64,000 nucleotides of DNA, from sequence record MW749001.1. One strand, written 5' to 3'. Origin of the DNA: Escherichia phage vB_EcoM_Kelasse. Positions 1,475 through 63,700 of this stretch are shown in pieces (position 1 is the stretch's first letter; each line of letters opens with the position of its first letter). The notes beneath the pieces were generated by a model that ran no database searches, was not told the DNA's origin, and saw nothing but the letters and a program-made list of their open reading frames with translations. The translations under genes and the position numbers were made by a program.

Positions 1475-1756
1475 TTAATTAAACAGTGGAGCGATACGTT
1501 TCAGAAGAGTAGCAGCACCTTTGGCGAATTTTACATCATGAAAAACAGTTTCTTCTTCCGTTACAACACGAGCTTTAATGTTTTCACAATCCCAATTTTT
1601 GCGAACAATCTTCAAAAGCTGCAGTAAATCTTTACATTCAGCAATATCGATAACACATCCACGAGAATCTTCCATTATAGCACGATAACCGTAAGCCATA
1701 CCATAATCGTTGAAAGATTGCTCGATGATAATTAAGTTTTCCATTTTATTCTCCAA
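1475..1756 (-). CDS. hypothetical protein (true start probably ATG near 1744)
   Basis: Track start is TTG; GGAG then ATG 4 codons downstream; leader shared with genes at 20204 and 62517. Confidence 0.5.
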   Translation of the reverse strand: MENKMENLIIIEQSFNDYGMAYGYRAIMEDSRGCVIDIAECKDLLQLLKIVRKNWDCENIKARVVTEEETVFHDVKFAKGAATLLKRIAPLFN

Positions 1757-1797
1757 GTTGTTTTCTGTATCAGTAGTTGATATTGATATAGTACCAT
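1741..1797 (-). repeat. promoter/leader repeat module, copy A
   Basis: About 55 nt near-identical to 62778..62834; contains 11-bp inverted repeat CAGTAGTTGAT / ATCAACTACTG. Confidence 0.7.
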
Positions 1798-1851
1798 AAT
1801 CAACTACTGATGTATATAGTTTTATGAAAAAATTTTAAACTTTATGCAAAT

Positions 1852-2304
1852 TTATGCTAAAGCTGCTTCGCACCATTTTTTAATTTGGAATTCAGGAACT
1901 ACCATGAACTGGCCTGCAAAAACAATATTGTAGAGCTTGACACCATCTTCTACCCAACGGTCCGAAATAAAACCAGCGACTTGATTCGTTGTCCATGGAG
2001 TTCCATCTGTTGCCGCCGCAATTGTGAATTTATGGTCTTTTACAACTAAAACTGAAGAACAAAGTTTCCATTTAAATGCGCTTTCTTCTGGCTCAATGAA
2101 CTGACTTGAGACATAACCAATGTTACCATCAGCGTCACGAACTTTAACCTCGTTACGACCAAAAACTGGATCACTTACAGAAAGAACTTCAACCAGCTTT
2201 CCTGCAACTTTAGAACGAGATGCAGACGATACACGCTTAATTTCACCGATAGTAATCATAATTTTTCTCTCTTTGTTGTTAAGATTTATACTCCGCAGGA
2301 CCAT
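1852..2304 (-). CDS. hypothetical protein, tandem paralog A (true start probably near 2259)
   Basis: C-terminus RWVEDGVKLYNIVFAGQFMVVP resembles neighbour; early promoter -10 lies inside track N-terminus. Confidence 0.55.
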   Translation of the reverse strand: MVLRSINLNNKERKIMITIGEIKRVSSASRSKVAGKLVEVLSVSDPVFGRNEVKVRDADGNIGYVSSQFIEPEESAFKWKLCSSVLVVKDHKFTIAAATDGTPWTTNQVAGFISDRWVEDGVKLYNIVFAGQFMVVPEFQIKKWCEAALA

Positions 2305-4763: not shown

Positions 4764-6083
4764 TCACACATAAAACACATCATAACGACCACGTGTTACA
4801 CCAACATAAAGAAGTTGTTGAGCTAATTCAGCATCTGCATAATGAATACAAGGCGTATAAATGAAAGCACGGTCTACAGACATACCCTGAGCTTTATGGA
4901 ATGTTGATGCAGGAAGTGCTTTCACTTTACTAAACTGTGATTTAGCATCCCAAAAATCACTCCACGGAGCTTTTCCGCCTTTGTTCCAATTTTTATAAGT
5001 TTCTGCCGTTTTACCTAAAAACAGGTTAAACTTATATAGCTCTTCATCAGATGAAATTATTTTAATCTTTTCACGATAATATTCATCATCGCCATAAGTT
5101 TCTACTGTTAAATCCCAATGACGAATTAAGTATTCTCCAGGAACACCACGAGCTTTAACAAACGTTGATGTATACTCTGCTTCTATAATACGAACTAATT
5201 GTCCGTTATTAAAAATAATTTCTGACACAGGCTTTCCATCAATTTTATATGTTTTAATTAATGGTTCCTGCATTACAATAATTTCACCAACAATAAAATC
5301 TTTATCAGTTTCAAAAATCTTTTTACGAATAATGCTATTTAACTTGTCAACAGATTTATTCGTAAATGCCATTACGCGATTTTCAAACAAATCATCTAAT
5401 GATTTTACGATTGAAAAATAATTTACCATAAAATCGCGTAAAGCGGTATCACCAGTAAATCCACGTACTCCATGCCCGTCAACAACTTTATCATAAATCC
5501 ACTTACCGTTGCGAACATCAGTAGCTACATCAATAATAGGAGCATTACTGCGTTTAACTTCAGTAAGTTCACACTGATAAAAATCTTTGTGTGTAAAGAA
5601 TGGACTGATATAAGCAGTATTTTCTCCTGGATCAACAGGTCTAATTTGCTTATTATCACCTATTCCAATTATAGTACACCAAGGTGGAATAGTTGAAAGC
5701 AGAATTTTAAATAGCTTTCTATCATACATTGACACTTCGTCGCAGATTAATACCCTGCATTTAGCTAAATCTGGTACTTCCTTCTGTTCAAAAAGAACGT
5801 TTTCTTCATACGTAACTGGGTTAATTTTAAGAATACTGTGAATAGTACTCGCTTCTTTCCCCGACAGTTTTGAAAGAATCTTTTTAGCTGCATGTGTAGG
5901 AGCTGCCAAAATGATACCAGTTTCGCCTGTTGATATTAAAGCTTCAATGATGAACTTAGTAAGAGTAGTCTTACCAGTACCAGCAGGTCCATTAATAGTT
6001 ACATGATGTTTCTTTTCTTTAATAGCCCTCATAACGATGTTAAAGGCATTTTTCTGGCCTTCTGTCAAATCATCAAATGTCAT
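4764..6083 (-). CDS. dda: Dda DNA helicase (SF1B)
   Basis: 439 aa; Walker A GPAGTGKT; sequence recognised as T4 Dda. Confidence 0.95.
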   Translation of the reverse strand: MTFDDLTEGQKNAFNIVMRAIKEKKHHVTINGPAGTGKTTLTKFIIEALISTGETGIILAAPTHAAKKILSKLSGKEASTIHSILKINPVTYEENVLFEQKEVPDLAKCRVLICDEVSMYDRKLFKILLSTIPPWCTIIGIGDNKQIRPVDPGENTAYISPFFTHKDFYQCELTEVKRSNAPIIDVATDVRNGKWIYDKVVDGHGVRGFTGDTALRDFMVNYFSIVKSLDDLFENRVMAFTNKSVDKLNSIIRKKIFETDKDFIVGEIIVMQEPLIKTYKIDGKPVSEIIFNNGQLVRIIEAEYTSTFVKARGVPGEYLIRHWDLTVETYGDDEYYREKIKIISSDEELYKFNLFLGKTAETYKNWNKGGKAPWSDFWDAKSQFSKVKALPASTFHKAQGMSVDRAFIYTPCIHYADAELAQQLLYVGVTRGRYDVFYV

Positions 6084-6392: not shown

Positions 6393-7139
6393 TTATCCTC
6401 GGATAAGTTTAAAAATTGAACAATTTAGCGGGTATCCTCTTTTCAGTTTAAGTTTATCAATAAAAGACAAGTTTTGATACCGCTCTACACCTTGAATAAT
6501 TTTATCACACATATCATATTGCATTTCTGCTTCTGACAACTTTTTCACAGTTTTCCAATCCGAGCCTTTAAGAAGAACGTTCAATTTAACAACTTCAGCG
6601 CCTTCTGCTATGCGAGAACCATCAATACGAGCTTTAAGTGCTATAATCGTTAGCTTAACGTCAGAAGTTTGTTTTGATTTAGAAAGCTGAGAAATGTGTT
6701 CAATTCGATTTTCACGTTTTTTCTGTATAGCTTTAATTTGATTATAAGTCTTTTTGATTTTAGCCCATTTCTTTTCATCTAAATTTAGTTTATGAACTTT
6801 TTTCGCAGATGAACGACCAATTCGCAAAGCAAATAAATCACGCTTTTCAATCAACTCTTCTAAAGTATAATCAGAACGAAATGTATTATACTTTTTCTTT
6901 ACTGCAATAACATTCCCTTTAATGTATCCAATGTTATTATCAAAACGTTCTAATGATAATTTCTCTCCTTCAATACGATTATCAAAAGGTTCTCCCGAGT
7001 AAGCACAAACTTTCTGATCTAAAATGTTCTTAATGTAATTGAAGTCTAAGTTAAAATCTTTAGAACGTCTTTTTGCAGATGCCTGAGTATGCTCTAGACG
7101 ACGTTTAATTTTACGAATTTGATTATTAGTCAGTTTCAT
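6393..7139 (-). CDS. srd: Srd-position protein (248 aa)
   Basis: Size and position between dda.1 and modA; contains degenerate HNH-like segment CAYSGE...LERFDNNIGYIKGNVIAV. Confidence 0.5.
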   Translation of the reverse strand: MKLTNNQIRKIKRRLEHTQASAKRRSKDFNLDFNYIKNILDQKVCAYSGEPFDNRIEGEKLSLERFDNNIGYIKGNVIAVKKKYNTFRSDYTLEELIEKRDLFALRIGRSSAKKVHKLNLDEKKWAKIKKTYNQIKAIQKKRENRIEHISQLSKSKQTSDVKLTIIALKARIDGSRIAEGAEVVKLNVLLKGSDWKTVKKLSEAEMQYDMCDKIIQGVERYQNLSFIDKLKLKRGYPLNCSIFKLIRG

Positions 7140-10581: not shown

Positions 10582-10645
10582 AGTGCTCTCCTCTATAAGA
10601 TAATTCTATTATACCATACTCATTTTGGAAAGTAAACCGGTAAAA

Positions 10646-10673
10646 TGAAAAAAGGACTCCTTCAGGAGTCCTT
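10646..10673 (-). terminator. rho-independent terminator downstream of soc
   Basis: Stem AAGGACUCC / GGAGUCCUU with 4-nt loop followed by U-tract. Confidence 0.65.
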
Positions 10674-14732: not shown

Positions 14733-14761
14733 AACAATCTCCTCATTTAACCAACAAGACT

Positions 14762-14791
14762 ACTATACCATAGTCTTGTCAGCTTGTAAAC
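14762..14791 (-). promoter_or_regulatory. T4 early-type promoter upstream of dmd
   Basis: Minus strand GTTTAC, 18 nt, TGGTATAGT; -10 flanked by 7-bp inverted repeat. Confidence 0.5.
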
Positions 14792-20203: not shown

Positions 20204-20452
20204 TCAAATGCAAGTAGTAATTACTCCAGTAGTGCTTATGCAGGTATTACCCATTTGCACACCTAAAGATCCATTTGTATTCACATGAAGATTATCATCA
20301 ATTTTAACTGATATTTTACCATTAGTGTGAATAACGGTGCTAGATTCAATCACAGGTTGAGTATCATTTTCAACACTAACAAATGGAACTGCTGCTAATG
20401 CAACTAAACAAACTGCTAAGCATCCCATAACAATTTTCATTTTATTCTCCAA
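20204..20452 (-). CDS. small secreted protein (true start probably ATG near 20440)
   Basis: Signal peptide MKIVMGCLAVCLVALAA; leader TTGGAGAATAAAATG shared with two other genes. Confidence 0.5.
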   Translation of the reverse strand: MENKMKIVMGCLAVCLVALAAVPFVSVENDTQPVIESSTVIHTNGKISVKIDDNLHVNTNGSLGVQMGNTCISTTGVITTCI

Positions 20453-20460
20453 ATCCGTAT

Positions 20461-20530
20461 TAGTTGATAGTTGTATAGTACCATGGAAGAACAGTCTTGT
20501 AAACAGTTTTGTGAAAATTTTTTAGGGAAT
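20461..20530 (-). repeat. promoter repeat module, copy C
   Basis: AGTTGATAGTTGTATAGTACCATGGAAGAACAG identical to 62811..62843. Confidence 0.7.
20475..20504 (-). promoter_or_regulatory. T4 early-type promoter downstream of gene 43
   Basis: Minus strand GTTTAC, 18 nt, TGGTACTAT; part of repeated module. Confidence 0.5.
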
Positions 20531-20586
20531 TCTAAAGGTCCAGAATCATCTGTTTTTCATAAGTATAGATTTATATTACTTGTATG

Positions 20587-20607
20587 AAAAAGGGACCCGG
20601 AGGTCCC
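20587..20607 (-). terminator. tetraloop hairpin/terminator downstream of gene 43
   Basis: GGGACC-UCCG-GGUCCC followed by U-tract. Confidence 0.55.
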
Positions 20608-20620
20608 TAGATTTATTCTA

Positions 20621-26726: not shown

Positions 26727-28409
26727 TTAAACCATTACAGTAAATCGACCAACTTTCTTCATTTGAAGATGCTGACCATATTCTTGTGGGTCATGGTCTT
26801 TATGTGAAATTATAAAGACATTAGTGTTTTTCATTGAATTTATAATATTAGCTACACCTTTAATACCTTCGGCATCAAATGACCCGTCAAACACTTCATC
26901 GAGTATTAATGTACTAATACTAACACCAGATACAATAGAAGCAATATCACGCCAAGTAAATAAAAGAGCAATATCAATTCGCGCTTTTTCACCTTCACTA
27001 AATGAAGCATAACTAAAATCTTCACGACCACGGGATTTAATTGTCTCATTAAATTCTTCATCTAATGTAAACACATAATCCGCTTCCATTATTTTAAGAT
27101 AATGGTTAATCTGTTTATTAAATAATGGAATGTACTTTTTAATAATAGCACCTTTAATACCAGAATCTTTGAGCATGTCAGTCAAAATTCCTCTGTGGTA
27201 TTTTTCCATTACTAAATTAGTTTTTGTCTTAACAATTTTATCAAGTTCTTCTTGAAGCAGTGCTATTTCATCAGCATGGTCAATAAACTCAGAAGATGCT
27301 TTTTCTATAGCTGCTTTAACTTTTTTAGCTTTATCTACCGTCGTGATTAGAGATTGCTTTTTATTGCGAATATCATTTGCCAACGACTGCTGAGTTTTAA
27401 TATTATCTCGGTATTCATCAACAAGAACTTTTAAATTATCACGGTGTGTTGAAAGCTGTTCAAACGAATGCGTACATTCAGAAACTTTATCTTTAATTTT
27501 AGAAACAACTTTATCACCGGAACTTAATTGTGACAAGCAGGTTGGACATAATCCACCTTCGTGATACATATTAATGACTTTATTATACGAGTCAATTTTT
27601 GATTTAATTAAAAATGCTTCTTGACCGATTTTATTAAATGCATCAGTCGGGTCTTCATCTAAAACAATATTAACTAATCTTTCATTAGCTTCTTCTATTT
27701 CCGATTTTAGCGTTCTAGCTTCTTTTGCCAAATCATCATACATATTTTGTAGACGAGTAAGGTTGTCACCCGTTAATTTTTTCTGGCGTTCAACGTTATC
27801 ATTATATATTTTAATTTGTTGGATAATACTATCTTTTTTAACATCAAGCACTTGGTTTTGTGAATTTAATTCACGTATTAGTGCTTTATTAAGCTTATCC
27901 ATTTCAGCTAATGTTCCTACCTCAAGCAGGTCTTCCACAAGCTTTCTTCGCGCAGGGGTCGACAAACCCATGAAAGGGGTATACCCTGCTGTACCAAGGA
28001 CAACAATCTGCTTGAAACTGGCATATGACATTCCGATAAGCTGTTCAAATTCTGCTTGGAAATCTTTACTGCTGGCAGATTCATTAAGACGTGTACCGTT
28101 AACGGTGATTTCGAAAACGTTTGGTTTTTGTCCTCTTTTGATATAGTACTTTTTCTCATCATATTCCATCCACAGTTCAACTAAAAGTTCTTTCTTATTT
28201 GTGCTGTTTATTAATTGACCTTTCTTTACATCACGAAATGGCTTGCCAAAAAGCCCAAACGTGATGGCTTCTAACATAGTAGACTTACCACCGCCATTTC
28301 GTCCAGTAATAAGAGTTTTTTGAACCTTATCTAATTGAATGTCAATAGGATTTCCACCTACTGACATTATATTTTGATACCTAACTCGGTTTAGTTTAAA
28401 ATTCTTCAC
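26727..28409 (-). CDS. 46: recombination nuclease subunit gp46 (Rad50/SbcC-like)
   Basis: 560 aa; Walker A GRNGGGKST, central coiled coil with CPTC zinc hook, C-terminal ABC signature. Confidence 0.92.
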   Translation of the reverse strand: MKNFKLNRVRYQNIMSVGGNPIDIQLDKVQKTLITGRNGGGKSTMLEAITFGLFGKPFRDVKKGQLINSTNKKELLVELWMEYDEKKYYIKRGQKPNVFEITVNGTRLNESASSKDFQAEFEQLIGMSYASFKQIVVLGTAGYTPFMGLSTPARRKLVEDLLEVGTLAEMDKLNKALIRELNSQNQVLDVKKDSIIQQIKIYNDNVERQKKLTGDNLTRLQNMYDDLAKEARTLKSEIEEANERLVNIVLDEDPTDAFNKIGQEAFLIKSKIDSYNKVINMYHEGGLCPTCLSQLSSGDKVVSKIKDKVSECTHSFEQLSTHRDNLKVLVDEYRDNIKTQQSLANDIRNKKQSLITTVDKAKKVKAAIEKASSEFIDHADEIALLQEELDKIVKTKTNLVMEKYHRGILTDMLKDSGIKGAIIKKYIPLFNKQINHYLKIMEADYVFTLDEEFNETIKSRGREDFSYASFSEGEKARIDIALLFTWRDIASIVSGVSISTLILDEVFDGSFDAEGIKGVANIINSMKNTNVFIISHKDHDPQEYGQHLQMKKVGRFTVMV

Positions 28410-45038: not shown

Positions 45039-45626
45039 TTATGCGAGTACCGTCTTTAACCGTTCTTCAAACTTCCGAAGAGTATTCTGGCGTTCAGCTC
45101 TTTGCTTTTTGTAAGTTTCAATACGCTCTGAAATGAGAGTGTATCGTTCATTTACTGATTCTTTCATAAAATCAGGAATTTCACGAGAAGCTTTAATCTC
45201 GTCAAATTTATCAATAACAGCTTGCTCTTCAGCAATTAAGTTATCATACATCAAAATATCTTTCTTGATGAACTCAATATCTTCTTGAGTTACACGAGAT
45301 AATTTAGATGCTTTATCCTTTTTGTACTGTTCGTTAGTATCACGAGACCAGTGTAATGTACGATTTTTATTCGTATTTTTGTAAATTTCTACAATACCAA
45401 TCTCATCGATAATAACGATCCAATTCCAACGAGATTTGTAAATTTGTCCTCCATCAACCGTGATTTCACCTCCAATTGAGATGTCATTAAAGAACTTGCT
45501 TTGAGCTTCAGATTTAAATTTACCATCATTGTAGTTTACCAAGTTGAAAATATCTTTAGCATTCATTTTCTGTTCCTCCGTAGTTGATAGTTGTATAGTA
45601 CCACAGAGGAACGGTCTTGTAAACAA
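45039..45626 (-). CDS. hypothetical protein (true start probably near 45566, about 175 aa)
   Basis: Early promoter inside track N-terminus; GGAGGAA Shine-Dalgarno before internal MNAKDIF. Confidence 0.55.
   Translation of the reverse strand: MFTRPFLCGTIQLSTTEEQKMNAKDIFNLVNYNDGKFKSEAQSKFFNDISIGGEITVDGGQIYKSRWNWIVIIDEIGIVEIYKNTNKNRTLHWSRDTNEQYKKDKASKLSRVTQEDIEFIKKDILMYDNLIAEEQAVIDKFDEIKASREIPDFMKESVNERYTLISERIETYKKQRAERQNTLRKFEERLKTVLA
45595..45624 (-). promoter_or_regulatory. T4 early-type promoter
   Basis: Minus strand GTTTAC, 18 nt, TGGTACTAT. Confidence 0.5.
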
Positions 45627-45941
45627 CTAAAAGAAACTTCTTTCACAATTTTTTCCACTGAACCACGCGCTCACTGCTTTCTTAGTCTCAGGAGCAGTGT
45701 TATCCATAAACCATTCAAAGGCAGCCTTTTTATGATTCTGGAGGGCTTCTCGGGCTTTAATCTGCTCACGGTCTATTAACACTAACATATGAGCCTTTCT
45801 TGTCACCAAGGGCTTCTTATGATTTTTTGAATACTCCCAATCATTTGTCCATCGCATCGTTGTTGCGAACTGAAATACTGCTTCTTTAATTTTAGTTTCA
45901 TAAATTTCACGAGCCTTTGAGTATAACATCATTACCTCCAT
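45627..45941 (-). CDS. hypothetical protein (104 aa)
   Basis: ORF track. Confidence 0.5.
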   Translation of the reverse strand: MEVMMLYSKAREIYETKIKEAVFQFATTMRWTNDWEYSKNHKKPLVTRKAHMLVLIDREQIKAREALQNHKKAAFEWFMDNTAPETKKAVSAWFSGKNCERSFF

Positions 45942-46030: not shown

Positions 46031-46999
46031 TTATTTCAGAAGAGTAACCTCAGCGATTTCTTCCCAACCGTTTTTGTCGGTCATAATAAAGTCAGCAAGA
46101 TAAAGCGCAGTACGCAGTGAAACATTGCGTAAACGATTAACATTGACTTTCATCCATGATAATGCTTTATAAGTTTCTTCATCAGAAAGACCGCGCTTTT
46201 GCATCATGTCAGTTGAAAGAATAACATCTTCAACCCTAACCATAATTTCTTCATTAGTGTGAACACCCAAATCCAAATAAACTGAGCGGGACACTAATGC
46301 TTGTAAATGTGGAGCAAGTTTAGTACCACGATCTAATTCGCGGTCAATGTCAACGTTTGTGATAAAAACAATCGTTCCTTTAAATTCAAACTCACGCTCA
46401 ATGCCTTTTTCTTCTAAGTAAGAAGATGCGGTGCTCCAGCAGACTTTACGGGTCTCTCCGGTGTCCAGAGCAGCTTTCAGAAGATTAAGAATGTCCATAT
46501 CAGAGAAAACATCCACATCATCAATCAAAAGGACAGAATTCTCTTCACGATTATTCCAAAGCTGCTCATAAAGACCAATACCAGAGATTTTACCATTAAT
46601 GCTTTTATACTCAATGTATCCAATATCATTTGCTTTATTTAAAGCTTTATCTAAAGAATACGTTTTACCAATACCTGCTGCTCCCGAGATAATTAATGAA
46701 CGAATGTTTCCGTTAATAATACCATTCGTCATCATTCCCATAACATTAAATCTTTTATTAATGCGGGTTTTCATATCTTCATACGATTCTTTAACTTCTT
46801 CAACTTTTACACCATCATATGAAATGTCTGATTTGTAAACCCAAACACCGCGACGCTTACCGTCAATTTCAACAAAAACTTTACCATCTCCTTGTGCATC
46901 TACCGGAGCATTATCTGGGAACCATTCACCTAAGAGCTCAAAAGTTCCAGAGATTTCTTTGCCAAAGTAGATACCCTTATTGATAGTTACAGTTTTCAT
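46031..46999 (-). CDS. AAA+ ATPase with about 90-aa N-terminal domain
   Basis: Walker A GAAGIGKT, Walker B LLIDDVD, sensor-1-like FITN. Confidence 0.65.
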   Translation of the reverse strand: MKTVTINKGIYFGKEISGTFELLGEWFPDNAPVDAQGDGKVFVEIDGKRRGVWVYKSDISYDGVKVEEVKESYEDMKTRINKRFNVMGMMTNGIINGNIRSLIISGAAGIGKTYSLDKALNKANDIGYIEYKSINGKISGIGLYEQLWNNREENSVLLIDDVDVFSDMDILNLLKAALDTGETRKVCWSTASSYLEEKGIEREFEFKGTIVFITNVDIDRELDRGTKLAPHLQALVSRSVYLDLGVHTNEEIMVRVEDVILSTDMMQKRGLSDEETYKALSWMKVNVNRLRNVSLRTALYLADFIMTDKNGWEEIAEVTLLK

Positions 47000-47056
47000 T
47001 TTATTCTCCTTTGATTTGATAGGACTACTATAACATAATCCTATCAGTTTGTATAC

Positions 47057-47257
47057 TTATTTTGACATTTCTTCGATGTCACGACGATACCCGTCACGAA
47101 CTTCACGAAGAGCTTCAAGGCCACACATAGGCTCGATACCAGTAATGTGAACTTGATTAATCTGATACTCTACATCTTCTAACTGAGCGAAAACATAACG
47201 ACGTTCAGCTGCACAACCAGATTTAGCTTTACCGAAACGTTTATTCAAAGTAGTCAT
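47057..47257 (-). CDS. hypothetical protein (66 aa)
   Basis: ORF track. Confidence 0.45.
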   Translation of the reverse strand: MTTLNKRFGKAKSGCAAERRYVFAQLEDVEYQINQVHITGIEPMCGLEALREVRDGYRRDIEEMSK

Positions 47258-47344
47258 TTTGTATCTCCAATTTACTCATTTGTTTTGATAGTTGTATAGT
47301 ATACCATAAAGCTTTATGCTTGTAAACAACTTTGTGAAAAATTT

Positions 47345-47375
47345 TTGAAATAAAAAAGGGAGCCCGAAGGCCCCC
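47345..47375 (-). terminator. hairpin/terminator downstream of nucleotidyltransferase gene
   Basis: GGGGGCC-UUCG-GGCUCCC followed by U-tract. Confidence 0.55.
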
Positions 47376-50213: not shown

Positions 50214-50241
50214 TCTCTTCTCCTTGGCAGTTGACAAGATT

Positions 50242-50271
50242 ACTATACCATAACCTTGCCAACTTGTAAAC
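50242..50271 (-). promoter_or_regulatory. T4 early-type promoter
   Basis: Minus strand GTTTAC, 18 nt, TGGTATAGT. Confidence 0.45.
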
Positions 50272-51025: not shown

Positions 51026-51093
51026 GATGTTCTCCTCTTTATCCGATAGTTATATAGTACCACAGCTCAAACGGAAAGTAAACCGGTAAAATG

Positions 51094-51115
51094 AAAAAAG
51101 TCTCCCGAAGGAGAC
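51094..51115 (-). terminator. rho-independent terminator
   Basis: GUCUCC-UUCG-GGAGAC followed by U6. Confidence 0.6.
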
Positions 51116-54760: not shown

Positions 54761-55222
54761 TCATTGAGTTTTAATTACTGCTTTAGAAGCCTTTCCTGGT
54801 AAACGACGACTGTTAATAATTGCCATCCTACATTGAAGTGACGGGTCTTTGAACTTCGCATTAGGTTTACAAACTGTAAATCCAAGCCAAAGATTTCCAT
54901 CTGTGATTTCTAAACGTCCAGGACGGTATTCAACCCCATCAATAAAATCCTCGTCAATGTCAGGACGCGGAGGCATACTCAGGAATTCATTAACTTCTAA
55001 AACATGGTCTTTTATTTTGTGGAATAATTCAAAAACATATGTCTCATCAATCTCCCGTTGAATTGCACGATCAAGAAGATGCTGAGAATATTTTAGATGA
55101 AACGATGAGACCCCTGCTGCTTTTGATGCCTCACGAATCTCATTGTTAATTTGACGAAACTCCGACTCAAAGTGACGACGAAGCTTATTTCGACGGATAA
55201 AAACTTCTGTGTTGATAGTCAT
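54761..55222 (-). CDS. regB: endoribonuclease RegB
   Basis: 153 aa; recognised as T4 RegB. Confidence 0.88.
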   Translation of the reverse strand: MTINTEVFIRRNKLRRHFESEFRQINNEIREASKAAGVSSFHLKYSQHLLDRAIQREIDETYVFELFHKIKDHVLEVNEFLSMPPRPDIDEDFIDGVEYRPGRLEITDGNLWLGFTVCKPNAKFKDPSLQCRMAIINSRRLPGKASKAVIKTQ

Positions 55223-55281
55223 GTTATTCTCCTCTTAACTGATAGAAAAATTATACCACAGTCAAGAGGAAAAGTAAACAG

Positions 55282-58339: not shown

Positions 58340-58385
58340 GTAGTTGATGAATGTATAGTATCAAAGTCCTTGGAGGAAGTAAACA

Positions 58386-61474: not shown

Positions 61475-62068
61475 TTATTTCAGAGAATTAATATATTCCT
61501 GGACATCGGCAGAGGTAGTTTCAACCCCAGAAATATTGCCGTTAAAAGTTTCAACTCGAGCAAGGGTATCTTCAATATCAACCTTAGTCAGTGCTGCAAT
61601 TTCAACTACATCATCGGCAGTACTAATTCCAAGGGCATTTGCCGCACGAGTTTCACGAATATATTCCAATTTAACTGCAAGTTCTTGGCGAGCATCATCT
61701 AACTCAACTACTTTCTTGGCGATTTCAATTCGCATTTCAGCATAACCGTCAGCTTTAGTAGTCAACTGCTCAGCTGTTCGGCGATATAGTAAACCGAGTT
61801 TAGCATGCATTGTTACATCTTGACCTTCGGAAAGAAGTTTTCGAATTTCACGCTCTTTTGATTCGGCCTGTCGATTCTTTTCGATAACAAGTTCACGAAT
61901 ACGTTTTTCTTCATTAATAGATTTAATAGAAGCAGTTTTTAGATCTTTAATTTTATCAAGTAGTTTTGCTGCTGCAGCAGTATACTGTTCTTCAACAGAT
62001 AGATTTTTAGCCATAGCAGAACCAAGTTTAGTGCGAATAAACTCAACAATTTTCTTCAGTGTGTTCAT
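61475..62068 (-). CDS. coiled-coil protein (197 aa)
   Basis: Heptad-rich throughout; loosely PspA-like layout, unverified. Confidence 0.5.
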
Positions 62069-62125
62069 AGTATTTCCTTAGATTGATACAATTAGATAAT
62101 ATCACGTTTTTAATAGATTGTAAAC

Positions 62126-62461
62126 TTATTCTTCGTCTATCTCATCGATAAAGACGTCAATGGCCTCGATAACGGCATCATTGATAGCCAATAAAGTAAA
62201 ATCATCGTCAGTACCTTTATAAGATTCTGAAGCATTGATATATGCTTGATTGACGAGTTCCCAAGCCTTTTTAAAATAAGGAGTTTCATCATCAGGACAA
62301 ATATCCCGCACACCTTCAAAGATACGATTGGCATAATCTAACACCCATTGTACAGGCATGTTTTGAGAACGTTCGTTAAACTCTTTAAATTCCTTAGATT
62401 CAAAAAGCTCTTCAGGATAATAATTTCGATTACAAAAAGCTTTACTAAAGTTACGTTTCAT
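62126..62461 (-). CDS. hypothetical acidic protein (111 aa)
   Basis: ORF track. Confidence 0.5.
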   Translation of the reverse strand: MKRNFSKAFCNRNYYPEELFESKEFKEFNERSQNMPVQWVLDYANRIFEGVRDICPDDETPYFKKAWELVNQAYINASESYKGTDDDFTLLAINDAVIEAIDVFIDEIDEE

Positions 62462-62516
62462 AATGTTCTCCTCAAGCTACAGGCTCATAATATCTCAATC
62501 ATGAGCCTGTGTAAAC

Positions 62517-62792
62517 TTATTTCATATTATTGAAATATTCTTCTGCGATTTCGTCGTTATCATGGTAAACTTTAGAAGACAGTTTAACATAACCTTCAGC
62601 AGTGAACATGTTAATCACAACTTTTACAGTATACCACTGACCGTCTTCATTACCCATTACTGCGTAAGTTTCAAACATCGGATGGTCAGGACCGATAACT
62701 TTAATATCATTCACTGTACGACCGAAATCTTCTGAAACGCATTTCATAAAGAAGTTGAACAGTTCGCCGTAATTATCCATTTCATTCTCCAA
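62517..62792 (-). CDS. hypothetical protein (true start probably ATG near 62780)
   Basis: Track start is TTG; GGAG then ATG downstream; promoter and leader module shared with genes at 1475 and 20204. Confidence 0.5.
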   Translation of the reverse strand: MENEMDNYGELFNFFMKCVSEDFGRTVNDIKVIGPDHPMFETYAVMGNEDGQWYTVKVVINMFTAEGYVKLSSKVYHDNDEIAEEYFNNMK

Positions 62793-62880
62793 GTTGTTTT
62801 CTGTATCAGTAGTTGATAGTTGTATAGTACCATGGAAGAACAGGGATGTAAACCGTTTTGTGAAAAATTTTTTAAAAAGT
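62778..62880 (-). repeat. promoter/leader repeat module, copy B
   Basis: 5' part matches 1741..1797; 3' part matches 20461..20530; partial copies near 45581 and 47285. Confidence 0.7.
62825..62853 (-). promoter_or_regulatory. T4 early-type promoter
   Basis: Minus strand GTTTAC, 17 nt, TGGTACTAT; part of repeated module. Confidence 0.5.
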
Positions 62881-63019
62881 TTTAGAGAATTCTAGGGAGG
62901 GAAGGGGCAATTAAAGGATAGGATAATATATTATAAAGGGTAGAAACTAAATGATGCCTAGAGAGGTCCAGAAAGGCCTAGATGCCAAAAAGCCCTATCA
63001 TTTAGATAGGGATTTAAAA

Positions 63020-63583
63020 TTATTTATCTAGTTTAGTTATTATAGCTTCTGCGGCAGCTTTTAGCTTAGATGCGGTGTTAATACGATTTTTAATTTCAGT
63101 ATACGCATCGCCAAGAACATCAAGGCTATCAGAATAAACACTTACACTATTGCGTTCGCTATTTGAAATAGAACCTTTAGTTTTACGTTCAAAATCGGTG
63201 TACACGTCTTGAAGATCACGGGCTGCCTTCTTTGCATCATCCAATGCATCAAGAGCTTTATTCAAAGCATTAACATATTTTTTAGTGTCGAACATATTCT
63301 TAGAAATTTTAACAGGTGCACGTTCAGGAGTAGCTAAGGCAGATTTAGGAACCTGAGCGCCAGATGCCAATTTCTTAGAAATTTTGAAAAATGCTTTATT
63401 GAAACTATTTTCTTGACTCATCGTAAAAGAACTATTATCAATGTTATACATTTCAATAGCTTTAGCTTTCCACTTAAGAAAATCGCCACGGTCTTTTGGG
63501 TCCAAGTGGAAGAATACTTTAGTAAGATCTGCTTCAGATGGTAATTTTGCTGCTTCGGTTAAAAATTCGGCGTAGGTTTTCAT
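63020..63583 (-). CDS. internal-protein-like protein with capsid targeting sequence (187 aa)
   Basis: N-terminus MKTYAEFLTEA; hairpin downstream. Confidence 0.6.
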   Translation of the reverse strand: MKTYAEFLTEAAKLPSEADLTKVFFHLDPKDRGDFLKWKAKAIEMYNIDNSSFTMSQENSFNKAFFKISKKLASGAQVPKSALATPERAPVKISKNMFDTKKYVNALNKALDALDDAKKAARDLQDVYTDFERKTKGSISNSERNSVSVYSDSLDVLGDAYTEIKNRINTASKLKAAAEAIITKLDK

Positions 63584-63660
63584 TTAAAATCCTTGAAATA
63601 ATTTATTGGTTATTAATTATTTATCACGTTGTTATATGTAACAGCATTCTCCGAGCGATT

Positions 63661-63700
63661 CAAACTAAAAAGCCCCAACCTTTCTGTCGGGGCTAAGAAT
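63661..63700 (-). terminator. rho-independent terminator downstream of 63702 ORF
   Basis: AGCCCC / GGGGCU stem with 12-nt loop followed by U5. Confidence 0.5.

Follow-up and report, generated by a model that had tools for sequence, protein, structure and literature searches.

Copies A, B and C of a promoter and leader module, each placed directly upstream of a small gene on the minus strand, are very probably paralogous copies of a composite early-gene cassette of the T-even phages, which is the reading that best explains the data as a whole. The analysis covered a 64,000-nucleotide stretch of Escherichia phage vB_EcoM_Kelasse (sequence record MW749001.1), here called the window. Hundreds of Tequatrovirus (T4-like) genomes match positions 1400–2400 at 95–99% identity, and the order of the minus-strand genes is that of T4 (39, goF, cef, motB … 43 … regB … e.8). 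The ORFs behind the cassettes are orf89 (1475–1744, 89 aa, between cef and motB; phrog_3720), orf78 (20204–20440, 78 aa, between gene 43 and imm.1; phrog_4189) and a homologue of T4 e.8 (62517–62780; phrog_2678), all minus-strand genes of unknown function. Each product falls into a PHROG family of its own, in agreement with an earlier note on this DNA, which had called the genes unrelated. T4 has the same three loci (A at 6548–6647, B at 27027–27101, C at 70653–70717) and carries additional relatives of the cassettes before nrdC.8, nrdC.10 and 55.6. The feature is already known in the form of the strong, unusually extended T-even early promoters, the RegB-sensitive Shine–Dalgarno (SD) consensus and cassette shuffling. 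What the earlier note had observed is confirmed here with a corrected anatomy, and its interpretation proved largely right.

In the mechanism that we propose, a cassette would comprise an A/T-rich upstream element, a sigma-70 promoter (GTTTACA, 17 nt, TGG TACTAT), the conserved core ACAACTATCAACTAC at the beginning of the transcript, a leader that is short and unstructured, and the SD with the start codon. Host RNA polymerase would initiate here immediately after infection, giving rise to a 28- to 37-nt leader followed by a small early ORF.

Extent of the repeat and promoter anatomy

Near-identical segments had been described at the three genes. The repeat itself is real, but its units are mosaic, as follows from the low likeness of A and B compared to the other two pairs. 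In the repeat search A and C share 61 nt at 92% identity and B and C 63 nt at 92%, as opposed to 71% over 63 nt for A and B; the gapped identities of the whole modules are 79% (A–C), 75% (B–C) and 68% (A–B). Copy A is like C from the −10 element to the ATG, and the likeness of copy B to C spans about −60 to +15. B, C and a fourth promoter (45581–45603) carry the core TGGTACTATACAACTATCAACTA without any difference; A has three mismatches to it. As to the common leader ending, TTGGAGAATRAAATG is found at the three ORF starts and at no other place in the window (three occurrences, expected 0.07). The 40-nt leader ATCAACTACTGATACAGAAAACAACTTGGAGAATGAAATG is present at C and, with one mismatch, at A, and nowhere else in the window (expected 0). 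A pattern scan of IMG/VR with the A/C leader returned three loci only; the INPHARED phage collection was used for the context survey.

About 20 more promoters of the form GTTTAC-N17-TAnnnT are found on the same strand of the window. One could argue for convergence, i.e. that each locus arrived independently at the generic T4 early-promoter and ribosome-binding-site consensus, without shared ancestry or recombination, given that GTTTAC, TGGTAYTAT and even ACAACTATCAAC are present in many other early promoters of the window and that GGAGAAUAAAA is in itself a functional consensus. For comparison, 22 early promoters of this strand were aligned in fixed register in all 231 pairs. B/C ranks first for the upstream region plus core (80% vs. 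a mean of 46%, z 4.5), and over the 40 nt past the −10 the most similar pair is A/C (93%, or 37 of 40 positions, vs. a mean of 35%, z 5.4). The A/C agreement includes 20 nt (CTGATACAGAAAACAAC...) that are found in no other promoter of the window, and the B/C likeness covers the spacer and the upstream region, which have no known consensus. The earlier note had allowed that the similarity might be limited to the generic early-promoter consensus; these scores speak against such a limit. Convergence, which also leaves the reticulate combinations of promoters and leaders (see below) unexplained, is very improbable as a general account and, as regards the A/C leader and the B/C promoter, is in effect refuted.

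The promoter elements of the paralogous cassettes are best preserved in B and C. Copy B (20438–20545, minus strand) has a −35 element TTTACA at 20498–20503, the TGG motif and a −10 element TACTAT at 20475–20480; from a predicted start at ~20468, a 28-nt leader runs to GGAGAATAAAA (20440–20450) and the ATG (20438–20440). Copy C (62778–62895, minus strand) has the same elements (−35 TTTACA at 62847–62852, TGG, −10 TACTAT at 62824–62829), a predicted start at ~62817, and a 37-nt leader followed by GGAGAATGAAA (62780–62790) and the ATG (62778–62780). In both, the −35 region reads GTTTACA (TTTACA vs. TTGACA), as is typical of T4 early promoters. Copy A (1742–1851, minus strand) consists of an A/T-rich region (1817–1851), a −35-like TATACA (1811–1816), a 17-nt spacer, TGG (1794–1796) and the −10 element TACTAT (1788–1793); its predicted start at ~1781 gives a 37-nt leader, then the SD and the ATG. 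The −35 region of A departs from the early-promoter form, with ATATACA in place of GTTTACA (5 of 7 positions). All three copies retain the 17-nt spacer, TGG and TACTAT of an extended −10 promoter, and an A/T-rich, UP-like region precedes the −35 in each (AAAAAATTTTTCACAAAAC in B and C, AAAATTTTTTCATAAAAC in A). Terminator-like hairpins on the same strand follow gene 43 (20591–20608, ~88 nt upstream of the −35 of B) and the ORF upstream of C (62993–63011, ~140 nt upstream of its −35).

A simple sigma-70 scan called B and C, each with TG before the −10, and did not call A, which has four of six matches per hexamer and 8/12 overall. Moreover, another group annotated predicted promoters in phage Lutter just upstream of the ORFs that correspond to the B and C loci. 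The description as a promoter and leader module is well borne out for B and C, which carry all elements of T4 early promoters, and is weaker for A with its degraded −35. Judged from these elements, A, B and C are predicted to be active promoters; A, in which TGG TACTAT is kept, would probably act as an extended −10 promoter, though it may be mainly a degraded cassette. A MotA-dependent middle promoter at A was rejected, as the −30 region is devoid of a TGCTT box. The T4 records hold no promoter features in AF158101 6200–8300 (around copy A) or in the inspected stretches of NC_000866, and the literature search returned no relevant T4 transcription-start map and no promoter sequences as text strings. 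The primary lists of T4 early promoters are reportedly those of Liebig and Rueger 1989 and of Wilkens and Rueger 1994.

Leader ends and the predicted RegB site

The common RNA-level regulation suggested earlier finds support in the sequence: the leader end corresponds to the RegB/S1 consensus GGAGAAUAAAA, and the endoribonuclease gene regB itself lies in the window (54761–55222, minus strand; Pfam PF10715, E 1.4e-68). The SD of orf89 at copy A, GGAGAATAAAA (1744–1754, minus strand), is an exact match to the optimal RegB/S1 site of T4. In the window this sequence occurs only at A, B and 46999–47009, in each case as an SD just behind an early promoter. When compared to the RegB site GGAGRAYARAA, for which GGAGAAUAAAA is the T4 optimum, A and B match exactly and C at 10 of 11 positions, with a G at position 8. 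In Durand et al. 2006 (PMC1702504), RegB cuts are mapped at T4 intergenic GGAG/GGAU motifs, the site must be single-stranded and is recognised together with ribosomal protein S1, and position 8 is among the most conserved A positions of the in vivo consensus. Copy C is therefore expected to be the poorer RegB site. A search of the accessible text of that paper for cef, imm.1, e.8 and nrdC.10 as cleavage sites gave no hit.

The earlier note had proposed that the leaders be folded. The primary leaders turned out to be nearly free of structure (−1.9 to −2.7 kcal/mol, z −0.4 to −0.7), and in the primary transcripts the SD is unpaired with a predicted probability of 0.79–0.85. The cassettes have in common with known RegB/S1 targets the 11-nt site, its predicted single-stranded state and its position as the SD of early genes. 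Based on these features, coordinated inactivation of the early messages by RegB is a known candidate for the common RNA control: the SD region would serve as an optimal target of RegB and S1, and the messages would be inactivated together a few minutes after the onset of transcription. The proposed common target would also account for the identical leader ends.

The conservation of the 40-nt leader before two unrelated genes might instead reflect regulation in cis by a structured RNA in the segment CUGAUACAGAAAACAAC, for example a riboswitch, a target for an sRNA, or the operator of a protein other than RegB. In addition to the lack of structure in the primary leaders, a search of the whole window against Rfam at gathering thresholds gave zero matches; this reading is extremely improbable. 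In read-through RNA of B and C, the SD could also be masked over a long range (unpaired probability 0.01–0.24); this was rejected as evidence, as the pairing is weak (about −12 kcal/mol over 115–124 nt) and involves large loops.

The inverted repeat of copy A and hairpins at other early promoters

Copy A contains a 43-nt quasi-palindrome (1769–1811, minus strand) with perfect 13-bp arms (1769–1781 and 1799–1811) and five further inner pairs (1784–1788 with 1792–1796); the −10 hexamer (1788–1793) is in the loop. The earlier note had correctly placed a perfect inverted repeat around the −10-like element and had given its length as 11 bp, two short of the actual arms. Among repeats with loops of ≤30 nt, these arms are the longest perfect inverted repeat in the window. 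The predicted hairpin is stable both as RNA (−20.2 kcal/mol, z −5.2) and as single-stranded DNA (−11.5 kcal/mol, z −4.6), and RNA and DNA folding revealed nothing comparable in B and C. The 3′ arm begins at the predicted transcription start (~1781). RNA initiated at A hence lacks the 5′ arm, and only read-through transcripts from the motB promoter can fold; the terminator scan found no terminator between motB and copy A. The hairpin ends 22 nt before the SD and leaves the start region unmasked. That the hairpin is itself an intrinsic terminator was rejected, since a U-tract is missing and the terminator scan was silent.

Alignment of A with C extends over the full length, including the A/T-rich upstream part, with differences at 9 of the 17 spacer positions. 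As the 3′ arm is part of the leader common to C and the 5′ arm stands in place of the C-type spacer, the repeat arose in the lineage of copy A. Its simplest origin would be one templated strand switch; mutations of this kind are classically known in T4. In the proposed scheme, the spacer of A would have been remodelled into the complement of +1 to +13, and this remodelling would have weakened the −35 and turned the cassette into an extended −10 promoter with a stable hairpin only in motB read-through RNA.

Such an origin raises the prospect that the repeat is a functionless by-product, in which one templated mutation copied the leader into the spacer and crippled the −35 at a dispensable locus. 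The nine differences from C are clustered in the spacer and jointly create the perfect arm, the ORF behind the cassette is in decay in T4 and missing from ES26, and the locus falls within a deletable region (PMC6070864). Still, the palindrome is unchanged in the great majority of ~535 genomes, hairpins at the same position are common, and a sister subfamily is clearly under selection (see below). We consider a by-product unlikely. The hairpin is invariant in T4, ES26 and KNP1, and the one change in Lv5cm converts a pair into U·G; owing to this near-invariance, it offers no covariation of its own.

Alternatively, the repeat could act as DNA, either as the operator at which a dimeric protein silences the promoter or as a cruciform that affects promoter opening or draws in structure-specific nucleases or recombination. 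The perfect 13-bp arms exactly bracket the −10, they form the longest perfect inverted repeat of the window, and the single-stranded DNA folds with the values given above. A common operator is contradicted by the arm sequence, which is found nowhere else, the other promoter hairpins having unrelated arms. Moreover, the related subfamily pairs through G·U and compensatory changes as RNA would, the Lv5cm arm change gives U·G, and the inner stem contains a G·T. A role at the DNA level is improbable on this evidence. With moderate confidence, the hairpin of copy A is attributed to an RNA-level role in read-through transcripts, by analogy to the hairpins discussed next. A barrier, processing or stability element would be most likely; a plausible guess is a barrier or stability element that would, for instance, shield the motB RNA once RegB has cut the SD that follows.

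To place the copy A hairpin in context, the region from −24 to +30 around each −10 was folded for the 22 early promoters. Ten of them yield strong hairpins (−15 to −24 kcal/mol; z ≤ −3.7) in which the loop holds the −10, the 5′ arm falls in the spacer and the 3′ arm lies just past the −10. The promoters at 14791, 50271 and 47056, together with the T4 orthologues of the first two, form a homologous subfamily with a 15-bp stem that is 97% paired, compared to 20–64% in slid controls. Four pairs are changed on both sides, and several switch between G·U and G–C or A–U. Similarly, a C–G pair of the e.7 promoter hairpin is T–A when the window is compared to T4 or HY01. The maintained pairing and the compensatory changes show that promoter-embedded hairpins are under selection, and the tolerance of G·U points to RNA.

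In a second subclass, GTTTACT is directly followed by TTCCTCC, an anti-Shine–Dalgarno sequence that forms the 5′ arm. This is seen most clearly at the regB promoter, whose spacer is paired with the regB SD in a 15-bp hairpin (−22.4 kcal/mol, z −5.8). The same spacer/SD arrangement, built from different sequences, is seen in Mosigvirus, Gelderlandvirus and Jiaodavirus, and in Gaprivervirus and Muldoonvirus the AUG region of regB is paired with the spacer and −10. In total, masking of the regB start region by a promoter-embedded hairpin was observed in six genera, the sequence differing in each. Across the window, the SD is masked in the read-through context for 6 of 17 promoter-proximal genes and for 12 of 90 other genes (Fisher p 0.04).

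It is possible, if somewhat doubtful, that these hairpins represent a general T4-like design in which an RNA hairpin around the early −10 sorts transcripts by origin, read-through RNA being folded and promoter-started RNA unfolded. In the anti-SD subclass (regB), translation of the promoter-proximal gene and its cleavage by RegB would be confined to RNA made from the gene's own promoter; in the subclass of copy A, the hairpin may protect the upstream message after RegB has cut the downstream SD. If true, the design would be an early-phase counterpart to the known masking at the late promoters of e, soc, 49 and I-TevI. These four, all with late promoters, are the only masked start regions listed in the reviews consulted (PMC3014915). 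These reviews mention no such masking for regB, and no earlier description of a promoter-origin hairpin design was found in the literature searched. The class of promoter-embedded hairpins is the part of the present results that merits further work.

Cassettes among related phages and comparison with known systems

The surroundings of the cassettes differ among relatives. At locus A, orf89 is intact in the window and in JLBYU24. In T4, Lv5cm and KNP1 an internal out-of-frame deletion leaves an 11-codon stub behind an intact cassette, and in ES26 orf89 is cleanly lost, the A leader being joined to cef within the SD. At locus B, promoter B, the B leader and orf78 are followed in the window by imm.1 with its own start region. 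T4 is devoid of orf78 and has the B leader joined directly to imm.1, with the junction within ATGAAAAT, a sequence common to both starts. In RB51, promoter B is retained with hardly a base changed as far as ...ATCAACTAC; beyond this point, a leader of the nrdC.8 type (GGAGGAACCGAAAATG) is followed by an unrelated 83-aa ORF that replaces orf78, and homology resumes at the imm.1 start region. In HY01 and W143 the e.7 slot, which adjoins copy C, is occupied by different ORFs; homology is lost there just past the e.7 promoter/SD and regained at the promoter or start region of e.6.

Promoters and leaders are reassorted as well. A further member of the family, the nrdC.8-type promoter at 45564–45665 (minus strand), combines the core TGGTACTATACAACTATCAACTA with a different leader, GGAGGAACAGAAAATG. 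Another (47255–47365, minus strand; promoter at 47327, E-type) drives an extra 66-aa ORF in the window, where nrdC.10 has a different, hairpin-type promoter; in T4, the same promoter type serves nrdC.10 itself via a B-type leader. Across the compared loci, the leader types L1, L2 and L3 are each paired with two promoter types. This reticulate pairing requires crossovers in the shared core. The breakpoints in relatives map either to the SD/ATG or within the promoter core, which is conserved, and some junctions (the orf89 deletion of T4, the fusion of B leader and imm.1) show only 4–8 nt of microhomology at the SD/ATG, so that homology between cassettes is not needed for every event.

The earlier note had suggested recombination between distant loci and a search for rearrangements between copies in related genomes. 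The comparison supports local events, i.e. gain, loss, fusion and replacement at each locus together with the reticulate mixing of promoters and leaders, but none of the compared relatives shows a rearrangement that links the distant loci A, B and C with one another. Deletions between the copies are expected to be lethal, as the copies are direct repeats with essential replication genes between them. We propose that the identical stretches of 25 to 60 nt would serve as homology patches for the very active phage recombination system, by which small ORFs would be deleted, fused and exchanged between phages and promoter and leader halves reassorted. Repeated regulatory cassettes of this kind are ordinary for T4-like phages, in which they mark sites of gain, loss and swap of small genes; here they explain the coming and going of orf89 and orf78 among relatives. 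For annotation, they define three early transcription units and predict early messages that would be shut off by RegB.

T4 early promoters are described as UP/−35/TGn/−10 promoters with extra consensus regions (review, Hinton 2010, PMC2988021). B and C share every listed element as well as strand and position with this class, and their T4 orthologues are almost identical; copy A differs in ATATACA vs. the expected GTTTACA. The likeness of A to C and of B to C reaches well past the class consensus. The copy A hairpin follows the same logic as T4 e, soc, 49 and I-TevI (PMC3014915), in that read-through RNA folds and internally started RNA lacks the 5′ arm. In those cases the promoters are late and the SD or AUG is masked, whereas copy A has an early-type promoter and its hairpin stops 22 nt short of the SD.

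A further close parallel is with the promoter-early stem-loop (PeSL) cassettes of T4-like phages (Arbiol et al. 2010, PMC2839356; Comeau et al. 2014, PMC4122927), for which the published crossovers fall in the interval from the −10 to the ATG (PMC2839356, PMC4122927), and mini-circles and stem-loop attenuation were studied by inverse PCR and reporter assays (PMC2839356). With regard to the stem-loop, only A has one over the −10 (−20.2 kcal/mol), and the promoters of B and C are without hairpin (z about 0), having an ordinary terminator only, 88–140 nt upstream. In PST/T4 the PeSL stem-loops lie just upstream of the promoter, whereas the loop itself contains the −10 in A and in roughly half of the window's early promoters; stems in the window are A/T-rich and of varied sequence, in contrast to GGGG...CCCC. 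Stem-loops over the −10, as at A, or between −35 and −10 have been published for RB49 and phi1, one of them with attenuator activity, and the PST/T4 consensus TTTACW-N17-TAYWAT fits B and C. The cassettes described here have the PeSL composite, in which an A/T-rich region and an early promoter are followed at the 3′ end by the SD and the ATG; like PeSLs, they are repeated often, concentrated in variable (hyperplastic) regions, and located beside indels and replacements of small ORFs among close relatives.

Inverted repeats and paired spacers at early promoters

The Rfam search returned no family at gathering score across the whole 64-kb window. Perfect inverted repeats of at least 11 bp with a loop of at most 30 nt number only three in the window, namely that of copy A (the early promoter and leader cassette downstream of motB) and those at 5322-5366 and 27084-27130. 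A homologous subfamily of minus-strand early promoters (14738-14791, 50218-50271 and 47003-47056) carries a 15-bp stem enclosing the -10 element, with 97% pairing and four compensatory double changes among the five sequences compared.

Further minus-strand early promoters, at positions 58384, 45624, 8535, 3340 and 42652, have TTCCTC(C) right behind GTTTACT, and this motif is complementary to the Shine-Dalgarno sequence (SD) of the downstream gene. In the read-through context, i.e. in RNA begun at an upstream promoter, the SD is masked in 6 of 17 promoter-proximal genes of the window as compared to 12 of 90 other genes (Fisher p 0.04).

A 28-nt stretch (10627-10654 and 51073-51100; GGAAAGTAAACCGGTAAAATGAAAAAAG on the plus strand), spanning a terminator tail through the -35 element, is identical in two early promoters. 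Each is preceded by a G+C-rich hairpin, and the two hairpins differ from each other. This arrangement is a canonical terminator-promoter cassette.

Genes adjoining the three repeated cassettes

Upstream of copy A, motB (1852-2304, minus strand) is a hybrid gene derived from two motB paralogues, both of which are carried in tandem by JLBYU24, RB3 and GiZh. Compared to these phages ~495 bp are absent, and the crossover zone lies at ~2186-2233. Behind copy B, the 5' end of orf78 (20424-20440, minus strand) reads ATGAAAATTGTTATGGG, within which AAAAUUGUUAUG equals positions 1-12 of the RegA SELEX consensus aaAAUUGUUAUGUAA. According to a review, this consensus has an exact match in no T4 message; orf78 itself is absent from T4.

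Behind copy C, e.8, e.7 and e.6 have one early promoter apiece, all inside ~750 bp, with those near e.7 and e.6 at 62461-62530 and 62068-62130 (minus strand). In the e.7 slot, HY01 carries a different ORF of 171 aa and W143 one of 58 aa; an additional 54-aa ORF is present there in Lutter. Relative to T4, the interval between the e.8 promoter and rnaC holds an insertion of ~670 bp (62996-63663, minus strand). It contains an ORF of 187 aa (63020-63583, minus strand; phrog_2280) with its own terminator at 62993-63011. Its N-terminus, MKTYAEFLTEAAK, resembles the capsid-targeting sequence that T4 internal proteins carry.

The regB promoter hairpin

The early promoter of the endoribonuclease gene regB is enclosed by a hairpin (55220-55279, minus strand), of which we found no mention in the reviews consulted. 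In the predicted fold, the -35/-10 spacer pairs with the regB SD (-22.4 kcal/mol, z -5.8); the 5' arm would be absent from promoter-started RNA. The same spacer/SD architecture is present, with differing sequences, in Mosigvirus, Gelderlandvirus and Jiaodavirus, while in regB of Gaprivervirus and Muldoonvirus it is the AUG region that pairs instead of the SD.
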